Virus record (IMG/VR): IMGVR_UViG_3300035208_002255
Coordinates: 64,001 to 128,000 of that record
Source of the DNA: a virus
Lineage: Duplodnaviria > Heunggongvirae > Uroviricota > Caudoviricetes
Direction: 5' to 3' (one strand)
DNA: 64,000 bases
Within the stretch, counting starts at the first letter, position 1, and each line of letters starts with the position of its first letter. The notes under the pieces were generated by a model. That model made no database searches. It saw nothing but the letters and a program-made list of their open reading frames with translations, and had not been told where the DNA came from. Position numbers and translations under genes: made by a program. This document shows, piece by piece, positions 2,406 through 56,113 of the stretch.

Positions 2406-3818
2406 TTATGATACTAACTTTTCTTTATCTTCATCAGACAGTTTATCAAACAAGAATCTCATACCATCTTTTGAGTTTGCCAAATCTCGAACCATCTTCT
2501 CGATGACGATTCTAAACAACTCATCTGATGGCTTTCTAAGAAGTGCTTGAAAAACATCATCAGCTGATAGTGTGCTCTCAAACTTTTTGGTGATGATAAC
2601 CTTTACGGCATTTGATACATCTTCAGATCTCTGAACCTGAAGAAGTTGCTTCTTGGTAAGCCTATCAAGTACTGTGTTAATAACATTGGTTGAAGAATCA
2701 GCCAACAAAGGTTTGAGATCCTCTAAATCTTTCAAGTGGAGGGCTGCAATATTCCTGTACTTATAGTTGGCCGAATCTCTCATCTTAATAAGGAATGCAC
2801 GCGAAAAATACTGTCCAAGATTCGCATATACAGTAATGTTGTTCTCTATTGAGTAAGGACCATCTTTGAAAAGTTTAGCCTTTGGCTTACGTCCTCGGGT
2901 CTTAACTTCCTGAACTCCAAGATTCTCGGAGTTCCATGATTCTATAAACTCGGCAGCCGCTTTCAACTGATCGCTATTAAGCTTAGAAAGCTTTTGAGCA
3001 TTTGTTGAAATAATGAAATCCATCAAAGCTTGTCCATTATTCCCAATCTTAAGAAGCGATATATCTTCAAAGTTTGGAACCTTAGCCACCAAATACTTCA
3101 TCGTAGATTGAAGCTGAGCTGCTAACCACTCGTTCAATCCTTCGACCTTTGAAAGGGAATTCTTGTTCTTTAGAATAACCCTTAACATATTATCTTGAGG
3201 CTTATCAGCCGCAACCGCTGCAACAACATCATGCAAAATCTCGCGCTCATTAGGTTTGAATGAACGCATGTTCGCATCGTTGGCAGCAAAGATTTCAAAC
3301 GACAACAAGTCTTTTCTTACGACACAATACTTATCAGATGTTAAAGGAGACTTGCCTTTGAATACGGTAATGTAAAAATCATTACCATTGATAACATACT
3401 CTTCATAGTGAGTTGAGTCTTTAGATACAGTACACCATCTTGTATTAGCACCGTACAAGATCATTGCTGCTTTTGTATCAACTCGAATTACTTTAAGTAC
3501 ATCATTTTCAAAGATTGATTCAGCGCCATACTCTTTTAGATCTTCGCGAATCTGACGTTTAGATCTCTCTGGCATTGTCTTACAGAGATCTTCAAGAGTC
3601 TTTAAGTCTTCGTACTTATAGATATCTTTCTCTTGAAACTTGGAGTTATACTTGTGAAAGAAATCAATCGTACCTTTAATATCAGGTACTGAATGTCCCT
3701 TTGACAACTGAGCGGCAATCCATAACAAATACTTATGAGTCTTTGTAGGATCTTCAATACCCATAGCAGCATCCGCAAAATTCGGATACTTAGCTTTTAC
3801 TTGTTCAACTCTGTTCAT
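2406..3818 (-). CDS. hypothetical protein (helical C-terminus)
   Basis: 470-aa ORF with YGANTRWCT motif; no function recognised. Confidence 0.75.
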   Translation of the reverse strand: MNRVEQVKAKYPNFADAAMGIEDPTKTHKYLLWIAAQLSKGHSVPDIKGTIDFFHKYNSKFQEKDIYKYEDLKTLEDLCKTMPERSKRQIREDLKEYGAESIFENDVLKVIRVDTKAAMILYGANTRWCTVSKDSTHYEEYVINGNDFYITVFKGKSPLTSDKYCVVRKDLLSFEIFAANDANMRSFKPNEREILHDVVAAVAADKPQDNMLRVILKNKNSLSKVEGLNEWLAAQLQSTMKYLVAKVPNFEDISLLKIGNNGQALMDFIISTNAQKLSKLNSDQLKAAAEFIESWNSENLGVQEVKTRGRKPKAKLFKDGPYSIENNITVYANLGQYFSRAFLIKMRDSANYKYRNIAALHLKDLEDLKPLLADSSTNVINTVLDRLTKKQLLQVQRSEDVSNAVKVIITKKFESTLSADDVFQALLRKPSDELFRIVIEKMVRDLANSKDGMRFLFDKLSDEDKEKLVS

Positions 3819-3829
3819 GACACCCCTAA

Positions 3830-4792
3830 TTACGAATGTAGAAACTGGTGTCCAATATCAGCACCAGGAACATGACTCAGCATTGAGATTATCGTCACAA
3901 AAACGATAATCAGTCCAACGTATAACCCAGTGTACTTGGCCAGCTCGACTGAAGATAAATCCCAATGATGATCACCCATCTTTTGGGTTCCAGCGATGAT
4001 TGGTTTACCTTTCTGATCAATTACCAACATCTCATATAATACTACCCAATAACTGCTAACTGCTCCGACACCCCAAAATACAAACAGGATAGGTGTTAGA
4101 ATAATTCCAACAACAATACCAAATGGCATAAGAACAAGCCATGCTCCAAATGGTCTAATCTCCAACATACCAACAATAGCAACAAACCAAAGAAGACTCA
4201 TTCCTGTTTTGAACGCAAGAGCACCAGCAAGAGCGAAACCCGCTCCCATTACAATAATACCAACATTAGTGCTTAGGGAGAAAGCAATTCCTTTAATGAA
4301 CCTTCCACCATCTAAAGGATTGATTGGAAACAGATTGAACAAATTAACTACACAAAGCCATGAAGCTGCAGCAGCCCACATTGGAGATTTTGTAATCCCA
4401 TATAAAATGAGTGGAGGAATTGCAGTTAAAAGACCAACTACAGGACCCATAAGAGCGATAAAGATTTCGTCCTTACCGCTCTTAAATGCATCATCAGCAA
4501 CAGCTGCACCACCAACAAAGGGAATAAAGTAGAATCCCTTTGTTTGCATTCCACAACGCCGCATTGCCCATACATGTCCCATTTCATGAAGTCCAATCCC
4601 TAGCATAACTAGGAGAGCAAACTTCCAAGTAAACAAAAATGTATATGTTGCTGCAGTACCGGCAGCTAAGATGAATTTCAAACTTTTAGCTACTTTTAGT
4701 ATGCAAGTAAACAACTTGTATCCAATGGCACTAAAACTAATTAGATTATTACTCTTCTTTGGTAAGAATGTTGTGGTGCTAATGGCTGTCAT
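3830..4792 (-). CDS. Site-2 protease (peptidase M50)
   Basis: HEMGH motif, NLFPINPLDGGR motif, multiple TM segments. Confidence 0.9.
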   Translation of the reverse strand: MTAISTTTFLPKKSNNLISFSAIGYKLFTCILKVAKSLKFILAAGTAATYTFLFTWKFALLVMLGIGLHEMGHVWAMRRCGMQTKGFYFIPFVGGAAVADDAFKSGKDEIFIALMGPVVGLLTAIPPLILYGITKSPMWAAAASWLCVVNLFNLFPINPLDGGRFIKGIAFSLSTNVGIIVMGAGFALAGALAFKTGMSLLWFVAIVGMLEIRPFGAWLVLMPFGIVVGIILTPILFVFWGVGAVSSYWVVLYEMLVIDQKGKPIIAGTQKMGDHHWDLSSVELAKYTGLYVGLIIVFVTIISMLSHVPGADIGHQFLHS

Positions 4793-7082: not shown

Positions 7083-7343
7083 CTAGTTTATAGAGTAGTT
7101 TTTCTGTTTAATGAAATTAGACATCTTCATCACTTCAGACCTAATTTTAAAAGGTAGGTCATCGATCTCTTTAAGTGTCATAGGTTTAAGTGACATATCA
7201 TCTTCAAAGATTGATACTACACCACAGTACGCACAAATAGATAAAGATCCAGGCTCTGGGGTGTAGTCAGATCCATCAGCAGTAGATGCTGCATCAAGTT
7301 TAGATCCGCAACCACAACAAACAGACTCTTTTGTTCTAGACAT
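7083..7343 (-). CDS. hypothetical zinc-ribbon protein
   Basis: CCGCG...CAYCG. Confidence 0.65.
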   Translation of the reverse strand: MSRTKESVCCGCGSKLDAASTADGSDYTPEPGSLSICAYCGVVSIFEDDMSLKPMTLKEIDDLPFKIRSEVMKMSNFIKQKNYSIN

Positions 7344-7968
7344 TGTTCACCTTGGTAAAGTGGTTTTTAAGTCTCAGCACTCCAACTTCGGTTTTCATAT
7401 CACCAACACCAAGAGCTTCATCCAGAGGAACTAAAATGCATTCTCCATTCCGCTCTTGGGGTGTTCCATCTTCGGATGGTTTACCAACAGGAATTCCGGT
7501 TACATCTACAGCATAGTAGAACAATCGTTCACCAGCCAAACCAACAGATCCCCAAACAGGCTCACCAAGTTTATAAATACTTGTAATTGGAGCATCAATT
7601 CCGACTTCTTCTTCAAGTTCTCGAATGGATGCATTGACAGGATCTTCATCACCATCAATTAGTCCAGCCGGAAGCTCCCAACCGCAACCAACAGCATTTG
7701 GAAAAGGCTTTCTTGCTGCAACGGCAATTCTTATACAACTACGCAGCCAAATCCTGGGATTGTTTTCCTCTGACAGATCGTAAGCGCAGATAACACACGC
7801 ATCCATACTCTTACGAGTAATGACATCGTGAGTAAATTCTTCAGAGATATCACCGTTTGGATATTCAAGCTTACACCTAAGATGTCTAATTTTTAGGAAA
7901 GGAGGCCCATCAACATCACCGATGTAATGAGTAATAACTTGAGGTGGTTTCTTTAAAATGCTAGACAT
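7336..7968 (-). CDS. Nudix hydrolase (ADP-ribose pyrophosphatase-like)
   Basis: Nudix box WELPAGLIDGDEDPVNASIRELEEEVG; likely start MSSILKK at 7968. Confidence 0.85.
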   Translation of the reverse strand: MSSILKKPPQVITHYIGDVDGPPFLKIRHLRCKLEYPNGDISEEFTHDVITRKSMDACVICAYDLSEENNPRIWLRSCIRIAVAARKPFPNAVGCGWELPAGLIDGDEDPVNASIRELEEEVGIDAPITSIYKLGEPVWGSVGLAGERLFYYAVDVTGIPVGKPSEDGTPQERNGECILVPLDEALGVGDMKTEVGVLRLKNHFTKVNNV

Positions 7969-8288
7969 AAAAATTTCCAGATAAAGAAAATAGCAACAAG
8001 TTGTAGTATCCACTGCAATCGCATTAAGATACCATGCTTCCATAAAACAAGCTGGCCGGACATAGTAAGTATCATAGAAAGCCTGTTAGATGACATTCCA
8101 CAACTCTCTAAGAGTTCTTCACTCTTTTTCATCTCCTCAACAATAAATGTAATTCTTTCAGAATTCATGTATTGAAGAAGACTTACACTTCTTATGAAGA
8201 ACGGAACAGGAATCAATGACTTAGTCAACTGATTTTGAGCCGCTATAACAAACTTAGCCTCTTCATGTGTTAGTTTTATTTGTTCCAA
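7953..8288 (-). CDS. hypothetical protein
   Basis: 111-aa ORF filling the gap between Nudix and ARH genes. Confidence 0.45.
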   Translation of the reverse strand: MEQIKLTHEEAKFVIAAQNQLTKSLIPVPFFIRSVSLLQYMNSERITFIVEEMKKSEELLESCGMSSNRLSMILTMSGQLVLWKHGILMRLQWILQLVAIFFIWKFLCLAF

Positions 8289-9243
8289 TTTTCAATAATC
8301 CCATTGTGTTGTTAATGAGTTTTTGCTTATTGTCGCCCAATGCATCTAACCATCTTGTAGGTATCGATTCGTATCCATGATACGCACCCAATAAAGCTCC
8401 AGCTACAGCCCCAACTGTATCTGCGTCATTTCCTCGATTAACTACTTTGACAAGACCTTCTTCAAAAGAATCATTTTGATACCAAGTAGCAATGGCACAC
8501 TTCAAAGTATCAATAACATAACCATCGTTTTCCCACATCTCCCATTCGTGAGTTGGAGCATCACTTATTGCTTCAATAACCCGAATAGCCCCGGTAACAG
8601 GTCGGACACTATCTCTGCTAAGACTTGATACAAGCTTGATTGTATGTACTAGTGCGTCCATTTTTGAAACACACTCGAATCCAAGCTTCAGGATGTTATT
8701 GACAGCAATACAGGAAAGAATACACTTTGGATCTGGGTGAGTATCTTCTGATAACTTTAAACTATCTATGATAAGTGATGTTTCATCGTTACGATGAACG
8801 ATAGCAGTTGGCATACACCTCATCAAAGATCCATTACCGGATGGATGGTGTCCGTTCGCCGCCCACAGCTGAACCGCTGGGTTGTAATCTTCACGAAGTT
8901 CATCCTTGGAAGAAATCTTTTCCCAAACATTTAGAACCTTATGAGTCCAATTACCAATGTCCTTTGGATTTGTTCGTTTCCACTCCAACCACTTATCAAC
9001 AATAGATGCTTGATTGTATTGACCATTCTCAAAATACATCTCTTGAATACCAATGGACATGATAGTGTCATCGGTAATATCTCCAGGATTCCATTTCAAA
9101 ACACCGCCACCAGTCATTTCCCTGATAAACTTATCAGGTTCCCGAGATGGAAGAAACTCTAATGGAGCACCCAACGCATCTCCCACAGCAGCACCAAGAA
9201 TGATCCCAAGTGCTGTACTTTCAGTTTTTGAATTACTCATCAT
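8263..9243 (-). CDS. ADP-ribosylglycohydrolase (DraG/ARH family)
   Basis: GAAVGDALGAPLEF, TDDT, GNGSLMRC, DADTVGAVAGALLGA. Confidence 0.93.
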   Translation of the reverse strand: MMSNSKTESTALGIILGAAVGDALGAPLEFLPSREPDKFIREMTGGGVLKWNPGDITDDTIMSIGIQEMYFENGQYNQASIVDKWLEWKRTNPKDIGNWTHKVLNVWEKISSKDELREDYNPAVQLWAANGHHPSGNGSLMRCMPTAIVHRNDETSLIIDSLKLSEDTHPDPKCILSCIAVNNILKLGFECVSKMDALVHTIKLVSSLSRDSVRPVTGAIRVIEAISDAPTHEWEMWENDGYVIDTLKCAIATWYQNDSFEEGLVKVVNRGNDADTVGAVAGALLGAYHGYESIPTRWLDALGDNKQKLINNTMGLLKIGTNKTNT

Positions 9244-10983: not shown

Positions 10984-13434
10984 TTACTTCAACTGCCAGC
11001 CGGGAGGCAGTGGCTCTTTCGGCCAAGCGTTCTCTCGGACCTCTTCCATCGTCAACATGTTAAAGACATCACCATTGAGAAAAACCTCTTGCATCACAGT
11101 ATCAGGGTGAACATCTTGACCTTTTTCAAGCTTCACCGTTTCATAAACAGCAAAACCAGCATCATTAATCTTACGAATAAGATCAAGACGACCACGCTTC
11201 GAGTTCTTCACCTGATCAGTAGCGGGCTGCTTGAAGACCTCAACCTCTTCGCCATTCACAATAACCCAGCTACACTTCATTGCAAAACGCTGTGTATCAC
11301 GATTATGTTGTTGAAGAAGAGCACCACCCATACCAAAAGTGATATTCTCAGTACTCCATCCAACTTCTTTTAGCGCCTCCAGGATCTCTTCAATACTATC
11401 AAGGTTCACACCATCACCTTGAATGACACGAACATATTTCAGAACCTTAAAACCCTTAGAATTCGTTGTAGTTCCGAATTTGTTACCAAGGATTTCTAGG
11501 ACTTTAAGAACTACTTCCTTTGGATCTCCCGAGTCAGGACGAACAACGAGAGTTGCTCCCGAATCAATCACCTTTTGCTTAAGAGTTCCACCCCAAATGT
11601 TCTCACATGCATTGAAGATGTCGTACGAATCAGAGACGCAAGCTAGGACCTTGCCATTACCACCGTACACCTCAAGCATGTTCTCATAAGCTTTCTCTTC
11701 ATTCTCACGGCCCCACGAAGTAATGGTGCTGTGTTCTGAATTACCACTTATAGCAACGAAATTATTCCTTCTAACAACTACCATTCCTGATGGAACCGTG
11801 ACGCAATATACTATTCCATTATATTCTATTGTACCTTTTTTAATTCCAAGGCCATTTCTTCCAGAAGCAGGACACACCATTACAGTATAAATAGTTTTTC
11901 TATTATCTCTTGGATCTTCATACTCTGATAATACAGATCTATGTCCAGATAAAACACCAACACACTGAACAACCGTTGCTGTGTCGTAATTGGTACTATG
12001 ATATAAAAGTGTATTATTTTTTATCTGTCCATCCCAATTAGTAAGTTCTTCAATTGCCTTTTTAGCCCAAGTGCTTGATATTTGTGTAATATCAATCCAA
12101 CTAAAATCCTTTACCATTAAGACATCATTTGGAACTTTTATCCAAAAATGGATTTTATCATTTGATTTGGATTCAAAATATTCGTAATTCAACTCTTTTA
12201 GAATCACTCTTAATCGTTCACATTTTCTTTTCTTTTTTAAGGAAAATCTAATTGGTTTACATCCGGTTTTTTCTCCAGTATATCTATCTTTTCTAGATAC
12301 GAAACTACCGTCAGCTTGAAAGGCTATACGTAAAGCGTCCAAAGGAGTAAATCTAGTAATTGGACCTACTCCTAATCCAGCTTGTGGAATTTCATTTCTT
12401 TGAGAGAACGAAATATCATTAGCTTGAAAAATTTCAAGCTCGTTAGTTGTAAGACTACGCCTTACCATTCTATGATTTGGAGTTACTACCAAATCAATTT
12501 TAGCTGTTTTTCCTTTAGTGGTAAAAGTAATCAAATTTCCACTATATGGTACATTATAAATGTTTTCAGGATATACAAATTCAATATTTCCCTCTTTTGT
12601 ATACTGAGCAACTTTTGTTTTTTCATCTAGGTCTTTAAATAAAACAAAACCATCTTCTGATAAAATTTCGGTTTCATCATCATAACAAGCGGGAATACTC
12701 CACGCCGACATTGGGCACTTGTACATTTCGTTAGCAAGAGCAACACCAACACCAGTATCCGATCCTCGGAAATTGATTAGGTGAGCACAGCCACCGATAG
12801 TCGCTGCTTCACGACAAGTTGCACCACGACCACCAAAATCATGAAGCTTAAACAGAACCTCTTCGGGTCCGCAATCCGAAGTTTCTGCAAGGTACTGTCC
12901 AATAAGCTTTCGAGCGTGATACGAAATCGTAGCTACATTTGTAGCATACCACATACGAACGAGCTGAGTTTCCAGCCACGAAGCAATCCAGAACAACTCA
13001 GGATCAGTGCTCTCAATACTGACGAGAATGTTGTGAGTAGGAACAACCGAACCTTCAGGGACAGCACGAATGCGTACAGGAAGCCTTCCGCCATAAACGT
13101 TCACAACTTTCATCCAACCATCATAGTTGAATGGCATTCCATGACCTTCCCAGAAAGCCTTAGCCTGCTCAACAATCTCTTTGGTAATGATAGGACCAGT
13201 AAAATACTCCTGGATCATATACATTAAACCAAAAACAACAGTCCTATCGAACTTGCCGCCACGGCTTTCGATGTACGAAAACATCTTGGTTGTACCCTTG
13301 GGATACTGGGGCCAGTGGCTCACTTTGTAGCTGTCTGCATCGACAAGTGGATTCTTCCACAGATTCATAGGAATCCTAATATTGTCAACACGATTACAAT
13401 TCATCTCAAATTCTGTAGTGCATTGATTTTCCAT
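10984..13434 (-). CDS. nadV: Nicotinamide phosphoribosyltransferase (intein-containing)
   Basis: DADSYKVSH, LHDFGGRG, SIPA|intein|SEHST, VVRPDSGDP, IQGDG, FGMGGALLQ; RBS AGGAG upstream of 13434. Confidence 0.93.
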   Translation of the reverse strand: MENQCTTEFEMNCNRVDNIRIPMNLWKNPLVDADSYKVSHWPQYPKGTTKMFSYIESRGGKFDRTVVFGLMYMIQEYFTGPIITKEIVEQAKAFWEGHGMPFNYDGWMKVVNVYGGRLPVRIRAVPEGSVVPTHNILVSIESTDPELFWIASWLETQLVRMWYATNVATISYHARKLIGQYLAETSDCGPEEVLFKLHDFGGRGATCREAATIGGCAHLINFRGSDTGVGVALANEMYKCPMSAWSIPACYDDETEILSEDGFVLFKDLDEKTKVAQYTKEGNIEFVYPENIYNVPYSGNLITFTTKGKTAKIDLVVTPNHRMVRRSLTTNELEIFQANDISFSQRNEIPQAGLGVGPITRFTPLDALRIAFQADGSFVSRKDRYTGEKTGCKPIRFSLKKKRKCERLRVILKELNYEYFESKSNDKIHFWIKVPNDVLMVKDFSWIDITQISSTWAKKAIEELTNWDGQIKNNTLLYHSTNYDTATVVQCVGVLSGHRSVLSEYEDPRDNRKTIYTVMVCPASGRNGLGIKKGTIEYNGIVYCVTVPSGMVVVRRNNFVAISGNSEHSTITSWGRENEEKAYENMLEVYGGNGKVLACVSDSYDIFNACENIWGGTLKQKVIDSGATLVVRPDSGDPKEVVLKVLEILGNKFGTTTNSKGFKVLKYVRVIQGDGVNLDSIEEILEALKEVGWSTENITFGMGGALLQQHNRDTQRFAMKCSWVIVNGEEVEVFKQPATDQVKNSKRGRLDLIRKINDAGFAVYETVKLEKGQDVHPDTVMQEVFLNGDVFNMLTMEEVRENAWPKEPLPPGWQLK
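11740..12687 (-). mobile_element. 316-aa intein with LAGLIDADG-type endonuclease in NAMPT
   Basis: Starts CYDDETEIL, has TPNH (block B), ADG and WDG endonuclease-like motifs, VYCVTVPSG (block F), ends GN before +1 Ser. Confidence 0.9.
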
Positions 13435-24968: not shown

Positions 24969-25136
24969 CTATTTTCCAATTTTGGATACATAAAAAAAAC
25001 CAACAGCACCACTGAGGCCTAATAATATGGAAAAATGTATCTGTCCAAAAAGAACATACAAAAGTGCATGTATTGGTATTGTGATGCTTAAAATTAAGAA
25101 GAAAAGAAGTGTTATCTTTATTACAGATGATTTCAT
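24969..25136 (-). CDS. small membrane protein
   Basis: Manual translation MKSSVIKITLLFFLILSITIPIHALLYVLFG...IGK (55 aa), ATGA overlap with PNKP stop. Confidence 0.55.
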   Translation of the reverse strand: MKSSVIKITLLFFLILSITIPIHALLYVLFGQIHFSILLGLSGAVGFFYVSKIGK

Positions 25137-26080
25137 TTGAAAAACTCCGCAGCATCACAGTACTGAAAACCACAACGCTCAGCAAAAGTTTTGTCGGTTT
25201 TCATATCCCCAACCATAATGCATTCTTTGGGATTGAGCTTATATCTCTCAATGAAATCAATACCCATTCCAGGCATTGGCTTTCTTAACCAAGATGTAAT
25301 TGGAGGAACATTAGAGTCATCATACCGATAGTCTATCGGTACTCCAAGATCGGTACATACGGAATCAAAACATGCAACACAATCTTTATGAGTTAGATCA
25401 CCTTTAGCAATACCACTTTGATTTGATGCGCCAAGCAAATGATAACCTTTAGCTTGCCAAGCTTTCAATACCTCAGCGCGGCCAGGTAGAATCCTTTGCT
25501 CAGAAACCTTTGTTGGATACTTTCCATTTCCTCCAACTGTCTCTCGAAGTGTTCCATCGAAGTCTAGAATAAGAGCCTTGTTCTTGTACTCCGGTCCCCA
25601 AACTCGAACGAAAGGAACCTTTGTAACACTAACAAATCCCTCTTCTTTCTTTGGTAACACAAGCTTGTTTCGCCAAGAGAAAAAGACGGAAGGAGGGAAA
25701 GTGTTAGGGTCGTTCTTGATAATAGGATCGTTGAACTCAGAAGGTTCAAGTACATGACCGTACCTCTGATACATTCTTCGACAAGCATTTACCTGACAAT
25801 CTTCCGAGGAAGTATTCACCCATAGCATTTCTACGGGCACATTGCCAGCGCTTTTTGCTGCATCAACGAAAACTTTGCGGTCCTCCAGAGTACAGAATAG
25901 ATTGTCTGAAATAACACTTTTGCCTTCAGCTAACGCTTCCAGCATCAGTGGAATAAGCTTTGTAATCTTACCACCAATAAGATCACGATTCAGTCGGACA
26001 AAATCTTTGTACTCAGGACTTTGAACATATGAACTCTTTCCGGCACCTGGCAACCCACCAACAAGAACGACCTTTTGCAT
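25133..26080 (-). CDS. Polynucleotide kinase / HAD phosphatase (PNKP-like)
   Basis: P-loop GGLPGAGKS; C-terminal LDFDGTL, SNQSGIA, RKPMPGM, MVGD. Confidence 0.85.
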   Translation of the reverse strand: MQKVVLVGGLPGAGKSSYVQSPEYKDFVRLNRDLIGGKITKLIPLMLEALAEGKSVISDNLFCTLEDRKVFVDAAKSAGNVPVEMLWVNTSSEDCQVNACRRMYQRYGHVLEPSEFNDPIIKNDPNTFPPSVFFSWRNKLVLPKKEEGFVSVTKVPFVRVWGPEYKNKALILDFDGTLRETVGGNGKYPTKVSEQRILPGRAEVLKAWQAKGYHLLGASNQSGIAKGDLTHKDCVACFDSVCTDLGVPIDYRYDDSNVPPITSWLRKPMPGMGIDFIERYKLNPKECIMVGDMKTDKTFAERCGFQYCDAAEFFK

Positions 26081-40608: not shown

Positions 40609-40640
40609 AAGCCTGCAACCTACAATGGTTGTGGGCTTTT
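40609..40640 (+). terminator. Rho-independent terminator (near-identical to 43882-43913)
   Basis: AAGCCTGCAACC-TACAAT-GGTTGTGGGCTTTT. Confidence 0.7.
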
Positions 40641-43881: not shown

Positions 43882-43913
43882 AAGCCTGCAATCCGAAAGG
43901 GTTGTGGGCTTTT
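43882..43913 (+). terminator. Rho-independent terminator
   Basis: AAGCCTGCAATCC-GAAA-GGGTTGTGGGCTTTT. Confidence 0.7.
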
Positions 43914-45966: not shown

Positions 45967-46056
45967 AGTGCGGGAGTTCCGTGAGGCTCTTAGCCGAGCC
46001 AAGTGCGGGAGTTCAGGGATGAAAATCCTCCCGCACTCCCTGTTCTGCACTCCCTG
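45967..46056. repeat. REP-like palindromic element AGTGCGGGAG...CTCCCGCACT (also 52221-52261, 55882-55935; degenerate 43993-44033)
   Basis: 10-bp stem conserved in three intergenic copies. Confidence 0.85.
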
Positions 46057-46364
46057 TGCCGAACCCCATCCAAAAGGCCTAACCATTTATAGATGAAACT
46101 GAACATCTAACAATGATAAACATTAGAGCACCCCCTGTTTTGACAAAGGATTGCCTACTCCTTCAAGCTAGGCCTCACTATATTGATGAAACTTAACCTC
46201 TAACAATGAGAATAAAATGATACGCGCCCCGCCCTAGCCTGTAACTCAGGCACTATACAATGGCTCAATGCGTTGAGATGCATGCGAGCACGCTAATAAA
46301 ACTGTAGTACAAGACACTACGGTAATGACAACCTGCTCTACCTTTATTGGTAACAGAAAACGCC

Positions 46365-48203: not shown

Positions 48204-48524
48204 ATGAAAGAGGCAATTGTAGTTCTATTGGTGAGCATCGCAGTGATTCTTGGAATCACTTGGATTGCACAGGGTGCGGACTTTTTTCTTTACAAGGTGT
48301 TTGCACCGAAGTACGAGGAAGTACGTCGGCAGACATTCGAGGAAACGAAGTCCTACAATGACGGGATGGTACAGGAGCTGCAAAACATGCGGTTCGAGTA
48401 CATCAAAGCAGATGCCGAGCACAAGAAAGCGCTCGCTCCAATCATCAGACACCGGGCGGCAAACTATCCTTGCGATAGGATGCCAGCTGACCTGTGTACG
48501 TTCGTGAACTCCTTGGGTAACTAA
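48204..48524 (+). CDS. membrane-anchored hypothetical protein
   Basis: N-terminal TM; VRRQTFEETKSYNDGMVQEL. Confidence 0.7.
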   Translation: MKEAIVVLLVSIAVILGITWIAQGADFFLYKVFAPKYEEVRRQTFEETKSYNDGMVQELQNMRFEYIKADAEHKKALAPIIRHRAANYPCDRMPADLCTFVNSLGN

Positions 48525-48542
48525 GTTACCAGAAAGTTGCCA

Positions 48543-49112
48543 ATGAAAAGCAAAATCATTCTGTTCATCCTGTTTGTTCTGAGCATCTGCACGGTGTGTG
48601 TTGGGTGTTTGGATTTCAAAGAATCCTCTGATCAGAAGCAGACGAAACAGCAAGAAAGACTCTTGGCTGAGGGGACTGCCCAAGTAGGGTTGCCCAATAT
48701 CAAGAACTTCCGTGAGCGGAAGTTGTTGAAGGACATTCTGGAGATGCGTGATCAAGAGGGGCTATCAACTTGGACGTACTTGTGGAGTGAGGTTCAAGGG
48801 AAGTGGGTATTCTTCTGTCACTCTGTTGGGTATGGGATTCCGTACTCCACGCAGTTCACGAATCCCTTGAAGATTGAATTCACGAACCGCGAAGGTCAAG
48901 CTGGATATTCGTATGATGTACTTCCGCAAGCTGACCCGAACGGATTGTTCTCGCCAAGTTCGGCAGATGGTACTTGGGTTCTTTGCAAGGATCCAAACGG
49001 TGACAAAGTATTGCCGGTACTTGTCGAACCCAGGTGTATCGTATCGCCGTTCGATTTGACGCCGAAAGAAGTTCCGAAGGAACCTAAGGACAAACCGACA
49101 GGGCCGCAGTAA
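48543..49112 (+). CDS. putative lipoprotein
   Basis: Signal peptide ending VGC; YGIPYSTQFTNP, QADPNGLF. Confidence 0.7.
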   Translation: MKSKIILFILFVLSICTVCVGCLDFKESSDQKQTKQQERLLAEGTAQVGLPNIKNFRERKLLKDILEMRDQEGLSTWTYLWSEVQGKWVFFCHSVGYGIPYSTQFTNPLKIEFTNREGQAGYSYDVLPQADPNGLFSPSSADGTWVLCKDPNGDKVLPVLVEPRCIVSPFDLTPKEVPKEPKDKPTGPQ

Positions 49113-49459
49113 TGGCAAACAACTACTCTGGATACTCTTTCGCAATAAAAGTTCCAAACGAAGCAGCCGCTCGGTGGTTGGAGAATCAAGCGGAGGAGAA
49201 TGGGATTGACACTGAGAGATACCAAGAAAGTTTGGTTCTTTCGAGAGAAGATTCCATCGACCTTGTGGTGGTGACTGAGTTTCTTCAGTTGTATCTAAAG
49301 AAGTTTGCACCCAAGGATGTTATTGGATTCTCCTGGGCAGAGTGGTGTGACAAGCCCAGAGTGAATGAGTTTGGTGGGGGCTGTGTTGTTGTCACCTGTG
49401 CTGAGATTGTGATCGAAGATACTTCGGAACGTCTCGAAAAGCTGATACCGAAACCATGA
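49112..49459 (+). CDS. hypothetical phage protein
   Basis: WAEWCDKPRVNEFGGG. Confidence 0.7.
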   Translation: MANNYSGYSFAIKVPNEAAARWLENQAEENGIDTERYQESLVLSREDSIDLVVVTEFLQLYLKKFAPKDVIGFSWAEWCDKPRVNEFGGGCVVVTCAEIVIEDTSERLEKLIPKP

Positions 49460-49674
49460 AAGCTCAAATCATCGGCGAGGTAGAAGTTTACGACTTCATC
49501 GTTAGATTTGACAACTCGGAAGAGGGTAATCGAATTTGGTTACCCGATGAAGAACTTGTAGACCTAACGGAAGAACAAGTTGCTCTCGTGTTACAATACA
49601 GGAAGTTAGCTAGTAAATACTACGAACTTTGCAAGGCGAAGAAAGCCGAGCAAGATGCGAAGGAGTCAGGATAG
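49456..49674 (+). CDS. hypothetical protein
   Basis: 72 aa, ATGA overlap. Confidence 0.6.
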   Translation: MKAQIIGEVEVYDFIVRFDNSEEGNRIWLPDEELVDLTEEQVALVLQYRKLASKYYELCKAKKAEQDAKESG

Positions 49675-49729
49675 CCGAAACCCGCTAAAGCGGGTCGCAT
49701 GGGGATAACCGCCCATGCCTGATGATGGC
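49674..49729 (+). ncRNA. Hammerhead ribozyme candidate (type II topology)
   Basis: GCC-GAAA-CCCGC(UAAA)GCGGG-UC-GCAUGGG(GAUAACCG)CCCAUGC-CUGAUGA-U-GGC; all core motifs present. Confidence 0.72.
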
Positions 49730-49766
49730 AGGTTTTTTAGGATAACTCCAACTTCAGAGGGATGGA

Positions 49767-50006
49767 ATGAGACACAACATGGCAGGAAGAATCCAAACAA
49801 TTCATCTCATCACAAATTGGTATGACATTGTGCATGAGTTTGGATGGAAGACTTACATTGAAGCATGGAAAGTAAGTTTGCGAGGTGGGACTTTTCTGGA
49901 GGCTGTTAGGAAATCAACACCACCACCACTACACCAAGAAATAAGAGGGAATCATGAGTACAATGAGTGCAGAGCAAAAAATCCAAGAGAAAAAAGACCG
50001 TCGTGA
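49767..50006 (+). CDS. hypothetical protein
   Basis: 79-aa ORF. Confidence 0.45.
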   Translation: MRHNMAGRIQTIHLITNWYDIVHEFGWKTYIEAWKVSLRGGTFLEAVRKSTPPPLHQEIRGNHEYNECRAKNPREKRPS

Positions 50007-52198: not shown

Positions 52199-52319
52199 GT
52201 TGTAACACAAATCCTAAGCCAGTGCGGGAGTTCAGGGAGGACTTTCCTCCCGTACTCCCTGTACAATTTACCAAAGAATTGTAGGTTTAGATGTCTGTGT
52301 AACAAAAAGAAAGGTCAAT

Positions 52320-55535: not shown

Positions 55536-56113
55536 CAGGAGTATTGTGATTCAAATACCATTGATTGAGAATCATACAGCTAAAGAGTTGTGCAATCTTT
55601 TCCAGGAGTCTGAACTTCTGGATGCAATAGCTTACATAGAATTGGTGTTCAGGCAAGAAGTTATCCCGGGATGTGAATTATTCCGCTTAGGTATTGATTT
55701 GAACTACAGTACACAAGAATTGTGGGCAGTACAGAACCGGTTGGCACTTGCAGTACATCACATGAATACCAGCAACCACCCTGGTTGTATGGCTGCATAA
55801 AAAGAAACAGCTAAGAATTCTTCAAACATTTCCCAGGTACTTTGCTTGGAAATACAAGTTCTTAAAGCCCCAATCAGGGTAAGTGCGGGAGTGTCCGTAA
55901 GGCTTTTAGCCGAGCCAGTCCTCCCGCACTCCTTGTCTGGGAAGGAGCTTCTGTGAAATCTACAAATACTTGTGATAACGAATACAATCTTACTAACATC
56001 ATCGAATTTGCGATTCGCACTCGGTTACCAGCCTTACAACGACAGGTTCAACAAGAACGTCAACACTACAGGGACAAAAAAAGAACTCCAAGTAAGTACT
56101 TCAAGAGGTAACA

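Follow-up and report, generated by a model that had tools for sequence, protein, structure and literature searches.

What is an RNA with the parts of a self-cleaving ribozyme doing in the short gap between two small phage genes, and does it act there as a processing site, as a regulatory switch or not at all? The window, by which we mean the whole stretch of 64,000 nucleotides that was analysed, comprises bases 64001-128000 of a 169,027-bp IMG/VR virus record that has inverted terminal repeats and is rated complete, and its source is a large uncultured phage of 169 kb with genes for NAD salvage and for radical-SAM enzymes. Past about 39.5 kb, every credible gene of the window is on the + strand, and the stretch in question forms a gap of 92 nt in this tightly packed row, between an ORF of 72 codons and a small ORF with two candidate start codons, in the same orientation as the row itself (Table 1). 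Homologues of the 72-codon ORF are 65-83% identical to it, and about 50 residues of the downstream small ORF are conserved (flanking-gene homologues P0002-P0006 and P0008-P0013, of which P0012 is probably the copy on contig L032, described below). Neither flanking ORF nor any neighbour matched a Pfam or PHROG family of known function, no close relative of the 72-residue and 79-residue flanking proteins was found among the viral contigs, and a search of a phage GenBank collection yielded neither close nor remote DNA matches nor any protein match.

Elsewhere, the phage encodes a tmRNA (98.5 bits; genome 164620-164981, L030:17020-17381) and about 38 tRNA genes, with tRNA arrays in L025-L027 and L030. 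The window also contains, on the - strand (10984-13434), a nicotinamide phosphoribosyltransferase (NAMPT) gene of 816 codons, both ends of which match NAMPT families, while residues ~249-589 have unrelated PHROG matches (ribonucleotide reductase, PhoH-like and thymidylate synthase), as expected of an inserted intein. A strong repeated palindrome, AGTGCGGGAG...CTCCCGCACT followed by CCCTGT, occupies three intergenic gaps (window 45967-46057, 52221-52262 and 55877-55936). The palindromes at 46002, 52221 and 55882 may be the bounds of a transcription unit, which would put the ribozyme midway through a block of some 6 kb.

The only Rfam match in the window was to the type II hammerhead model (RF02276, Hammerhead_II), over the full model length, at 41.7 bits against a gathering cut-off of 37, with E-values of 4e-5 for the 64-kb window and 2.6e-8 for the genome. 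It was also the sole ribozyme match in the 169,027-bp genome, and the same search returned zero RF02276 matches in 14 control genomes. The catalytic core is complete, with C3-U4-G5-A6-N7-G8-A9 and G12-A13-A14 all present and with C, not G, at position 17; the A15.1-U16.1 pair that closes stem III by the cleavage site is present, and the G10.1-C11.1 pair (G49727-C49676) can form, with U49726 intervening between A9 and G10.1. [quoted passage not shown] The original prediction, read from the letters of this DNA, had named a hammerhead with these stems and this core, cut after C49696 and overlapping the upstream stop codon. Every element listed there was found in its place on checking the sequence, the Rfam score bears out the identity, the Rfam alignment puts the cut at the same base, and the stop codon does share its last base with stem II.

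Table 1 Features of the hammerhead locus, in window coordinates.
Feature	Position	Strand	Details	Basis
Upstream ORF	49456-49674	+	72 codons; stop TAG 49672-74 shares G49674 with stem II	
Type II hammerhead ribozyme, whole match	49673-49737	+		RF02276, 41.7 bits
Stem II, 5' strand	49674-49676	+	GCC; partner GGC 49727-29	
Core G12 A13 A14 and A15.1	49677-49680	+	GAAA	Sequence, Rfam alignment
Stem III hairpin	49680-49695	+	A49680-U49695 and CCCGC 49681-85/GCGGG 49690-94; loop UAAA	-9.6 kcal/mol
GUC triplet	49694-49696	+	GUC	Sequence
Predicted cleavage site	49696-49697	+	C17 = C49696 / G49697	Position from Rfam alignment
Stem I hairpin	49697-49718	+	GCAUGGG 49697-703/CCCAUGC 49712-18; 7 bp, 8-nt loop	-12.0 kcal/mol
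Pseudoknot half in loop I	49707-49710	+	AACC; complementary to GGUU 49731-34	
Terminator-like hairpin	49717-49738	+	G.U and CCUG 49718-21/CAGG 49729-32; 7-nt loop, then U6 49733-38	Sequence, folding
Core C3 to A9	49719-49725	+	CUGAUGA	Sequence, Rfam alignment
Extra U between A9 and G10.1	49726	+	U	Sequence
Stem II, 3' strand	49727-49729	+	GGC; partner GCC 49674-76	
Pseudoknot half in 3' tail	49731-49734	+	GGUU; starts one base past stem II	
Shine-Dalgarno-like motif and downstream small ORF	49757-50006	+	GAGGG 49757-61; ATG 49767 or 49779	

Relatives were collected with a search pattern fixing only stem III and the core, which matched 19 viral-contig loci and 8 loci in metagenome-assembled genomes; after removal of duplicates, 27 sequences, including the window and one orthologue, made up alignment A2. 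The GAAA core is invariant in A2 but was fixed there by the pattern, and so was the sequence of stem III. All seven pairs of stem I change on both sides among the 27 sequences, with 94% of cells paired; the covariation score was reached by none of 500 shuffles, and slid registers dropped the pairing to 32-48%. RNAalifold recovered the same stems from the 27 sequences without prior input. Stem II measures 3-4 bp in every one of the 27, and 12 of them carry an extra base after A9 (a U in 10), so that the 3-bp stem II and bulged U of the window are the family norm. The worry attached to the original prediction, that so short a stem II might fail to form, thereby loses its ground; nearest-neighbour folding in longer contexts does give stem II a low pair probability (0.006-0.32), from a model that is blind to the pseudoknot and to tertiary contacts.

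The pseudoknot is the remaining element of the type II fold, and in the window AACC of loop I can pair with GGUU 3' of stem II; it consists of 4 bp only, two of them A-U, with an estimated contribution of about -3.7 kcal/mol. At least four Watson-Crick pairs can form at the same place, with differing sequences, in 10 of the 19 sequences of the viral-contig set (window included), as against a mean of 2.1 when the tails were permuted under positional restriction, and none of 2000 permutations reached 10.

Several further features of the relatives were recorded. Hammerheads in L011, L012, L018, L019 and L022 and two in L014 (8763-8818 and 9136-9189) score below the Rfam gathering threshold although their core is canonical, their stems are paired and they share the stop-codon layout discussed below; Rfam seems to under-detect a hammerhead subgroup with a short stem I. 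Arrays occur in L014, with four hammerheads within 2 kb (7209-9189), and in L017, with two around an 83-codon gene (3564-3964); the window phage has a single copy. One family of downstream genes is common to L010, L034, L036, L037, L039 and L040 and encodes small proteins that are 53-64% identical in most pairs, with a HARE-HTH domain in both of the proteins scanned (L010 and L034), and the upstream genes at these six loci mostly differ. A glutamine-amidotransferase-like protein is encoded downstream of the hammerhead at one relative locus.

The orthologue lies on metagenome contig Ga0172381_10238583 (L032), where the 72-residue gene has a counterpart of 69% identity and is followed, about 960 nt on, by a hammerhead scoring 35.6 bits with RF02276, just under the cut-off. 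Relative to the window, two of its stem I pairs are replaced in a compensatory manner (G-C by A-U and G-C by U-A), its loop III is one base longer, one loop I base is changed and U6 has become UUCUUU; the core and both pseudoknot strands are identical, so that this orthologue offers no covariation evidence for the pseudoknot. Window 49672-49824 and L032:1304-1457 are 95.5% identical over 153 nt, and all 7 differences fall inside the ribozyme, in loops, compensated stem positions or the tail. The identity between the two rises from 84% in the upstream gene to 89% in the hammerhead and 100% in the 86 nt downstream, a gradient from which the ribozyme may be read as a mosaic or recombination boundary on both edges. 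An 8-mer, ATGGCAGG, occurs twice, at 49725-49732, where it comprises A9, the extra U, the stem II strand and the start of the pseudoknot tail, and at 49779-49786, where it comprises the second candidate start codon (M-A-G); the repeat is unchanged in L032 and could be due to chance.

Between the 72-residue gene and the ribozyme, L032 has two additional genes (968 bp; L032:345-1303) that are absent from that place in the window. Homology resumes exactly at the TAG, where window 49672 marks the end of the 968-bp indel, and two different upstream genes thus end on the same ribozyme-borne stop codon, while the hammerhead stays joined to the beginning of the downstream gene in both sequences, to the limit of the L032 contig. 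One of the proteins encoded in the L032 insert, of 237 residues, has a 54%-identical copy elsewhere in the window phage (genome 157275-157916, L030:9675-10316). Three viral contigs share the genes at window 48204-49112 (46-63% identity) and contain a hammerhead neither within 4 kb nor elsewhere in their records; they also lack the genes that flank the ribozyme, so that conservation at the orthologous site is seen in L032 only.

On this evidence we hold, with a probability of roughly 0.7, that a functional type II hammerhead fills the gap that separates the two small genes in the + strand block, and we infer from its placement that the ribozyme is best read as cleaving a polycistronic phage mRNA constitutively, the natural reading for a hammerhead that is co-oriented with tightly packed + strand genes. 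The self-cleavage and mRNA processing proposed in the original prediction are retained in this reading, and the switching by alternative folding that went with them is judged unlikely, for reasons set out below. During transcription of the polycistronic RNA, stems III and I would fold first, the 3-bp stem II with its bulged U would then close the junction, and the 4-bp pseudoknot would keep stems I and II side by side, after which the RNA would cut itself after C49696. Hammerheads as a family cut after C17 and leave a 2',3'-cyclic phosphate and a 5'-OH. The upstream RNA would accordingly retain the stop codon and 22 nt more, ending in the stem III hairpin with the cyclic phosphate, and the downstream RNA would begin with a 5'-OH that immediately adjoins the stem I hairpin and lies about 60 nt ahead of the ribosome-binding site of the following gene. 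The two pieces should separate, since a total of 7 bp, in stem II and the pseudoknot, would be all that holds them together.

In bacterial RNA decay, hairpin-capped and 5'-OH ends should slow 3' exonucleases and 5'-end-dependent RNases, so that each half of the operon would have a lifetime of its own and the downstream gene an unvarying leader; the net effect would be to uncouple the fates of the upstream and downstream cistrons, each with its own stability and the latter with a fixed 5' leader. Translational unmasking of the downstream gene by cleavage was also considered and dropped, because the predicted accessibility of its ribosome-binding site is unchanged (0.56 unpaired before and 0.57 after cleavage). 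An ORF at window 25133-26080 (- strand) matches polynucleotide kinase weakly (phrog_505, E = 3.5e-6); that its kinase-like product could act on the 5'-OH and cyclic-phosphate ends from ribozyme cleavage is pure speculation.

Constitutive processing has to be set against a switch, in which the hammerhead would alternate with the CCUG/CAGG-U6 hairpin and the latter would terminate transcription or mask C3-G5, regulating cleavage and read-through. Both the hairpin and U6 are present in the window, as the original prediction had stated, and CAG, the complement of the core CUG, comes after stem II in 18 of the 27 relatives. The energetics speak against regulation of this kind, which we rate as unlikely: the hairpin alone amounts to 5 pairs and -4.9 kcal/mol, the full fold containing it reaches -22.3 kcal/mol against -26.4 for the hammerhead, 4.1 worse even before the pseudoknot is counted, and its pair probabilities are at most 0.06 in three contexts. 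The bases of CAG, moreover, double as the last base of stem II (C), the linker (A) and the first base of the pseudoknot (G), and a fourth pair extending CUG/CAG is found in 9 of the 18 relatives (7 Watson-Crick and 2 G.U) against about 7 expected by chance on a rough estimate. A run of six U after stem II is broken in L032 and occurs in none of the 25 other relatives. A terminator scan yielded 26 sites, against 17.9 +/- 4.3 in shuffled sequence, with 49717-49738 among the weakest, while the best + strand candidates of the phage, at 40609-40638 and 43882-43911, have stems of 12-13 bp; these two are near-identical hairpins, AAGCCTGCAA...TTGTGGGCTT followed by TTG. The stable, G+C-rich hairpin with a conserved run of U that characterizes an intrinsic terminator is thus not what is found here, and we judge the terminator-like hairpin to be incidental or at most a minor alternative fold; the letters on which the proposed competition was built stand, and the terminator switching has little support. 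A motif that is inactive, having decayed or having arisen by chance, could account for a score only 4.7 bits above the cut-off, a folding z-score of -1.5 and a short stem II with a bulged U, and we give it a very slight chance, given the compensatory changes in L032, the fully intact core and the covariation of the family. A bulged U and a 3-bp stem II are, besides, normal among the relatives, and the CChMVd hammerhead tolerates or benefits from a U at this place (PMC3705267).

The other alternative concerns translation and starts from the stop codon, whose position recurs in the family. In all 26 testable relatives the stop of an open frame of 54-216 codons lies 3-8 nt before CCGAAAC; the G of UAG makes the outer stem II pair in 13 of the 27 aligned sequences (window included), the stop abuts stem II in 9 and is separated from it by 1-2 nt in 4, and in L034 it lies a few bases further upstream. 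Start codons with a preceding ribosome-binding site follow 15-43 nt past the core. Among the three further above-cut-off hammerheads that were found without the stem III pattern, the stop adjoins in two, and none adjoins L041, a strong hammerhead (57 bits); a wider sample of 151 genomes of one phylum gave 4 matches, 2 of them above the cut-off and 1 of these new, too few for a family-wide count of stop offsets. A stop codon in or abutting stem II is not mentioned in the literature searched, and the words 'stop codon' occur 0 times in PMC3088659. With the stop inside stem II, a terminating ribosome could gate cleavage, since it would cover stem II, GAAA and the 5' half of stem III and so unfold the ribozyme. 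A ribosome covers roughly 12-15 nt downstream of its A site. Cleavage would then fall as upstream ribosome traffic rises, linking mRNA processing to translation. The layout in the window and its relatives and the additional hammerheads with an adjoining stop agree with such gating, as does L032, where another upstream gene ends on the same TAG; against it, compaction alone predicts this layout, nothing being needed between stop and ribozyme, and L041 does without the stop. Because genome compaction would give the same layout, the layout does not in itself establish a function, and we think gating unlikely; it is in any case an addition to hammerhead processing and not exclusive of it. With similarly low expectation, hammerhead, built-in stop and downstream gene might together form a portable module, a natural translation-sensitive ribozyme insulator that would also mark a recombination boundary. 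Any gene arriving upstream would end on the UAG of the ribozyme, the terminating ribosome would briefly unfold the ribozyme, and cleavage would then give the downstream gene a context-independent, hairpin-capped 5'-OH leader. The exact coincidence of the indel end with the TAG, the regularity of the stop position among the testable relatives and the stepwise identity to L032 are consistent with this proposal.

Read as a processing hammerhead, the locus adds one well-supported example to the many type II hammerheads known in phages, which will not surprise specialists, and an over-reading as a terminator switch is corrected. What it adds is modest, namely an orthologue pair and a stop-codon layout that ease the design of a functional test. 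The window offers a two-gene test case for what phage hammerheads do, being solitary, having an orthologue with compensatory changes behind a different upstream gene, and carrying a stop codon in stem II; since the stop is inside that stem, translation gating and insulation could be tested with few mutants. The stop-codon habit, absent from the literature searched, deserves a family-wide count.

Among engineered systems, RiboJ-type synthetic insulators place a hammerhead ahead of a gene, where it removes the upstream RNA and leaves a constant 5' leader; RiboJ itself was engineered from a satellite-RNA hammerhead. The window resembles such a construct in that its hammerhead, together with the beginning of the next gene, recurs in L032 behind another upstream gene, and by this analogy the natural hammerhead may act as an insulator.

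The bulged U has a counterpart in the CChMVd(+) hammerhead, in which an extra U between A9 and G10.1 raises the cleavage rate 3-4 fold (reviewed in PMC3705267). The window ribozyme likewise has one extra nucleotide at this core position, and a U there is compatible with faster cleavage, whereas the CChMVd(+) hammerhead belongs to a viroid, is of type III and acts on rolling-circle replication intermediates and not on mRNA. Natural type II hammerheads were defined by Perreault et al. 2011, most of them with a pseudoknot of at least 4 bp from loop I to bases after stem II (PMC3088659). A stem II of no more than 1-2 bp can suffice in this family, since the pseudoknot keeps stems I and II in contact, and cleavage was shown for members with a pseudoknot and a very short stem II (PMC3088659). 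Cleavage in vivo was detected for three type II hammerheads in Desulfovibrio vulgaris (PMC8782182), and cleavage of polycistronic mRNA was proposed for phage hammerheads (PMC3088659). The window ribozyme differs from the described RF02276 hammerheads in being solitary in its 169-kb genome, not clustered, and in its extra U after A9; it shares with them the topology, the canonical core, a very short stem II, a pseudoknot starting one base past stem II and a location between small phage genes of no constant identity (PMC3088659).
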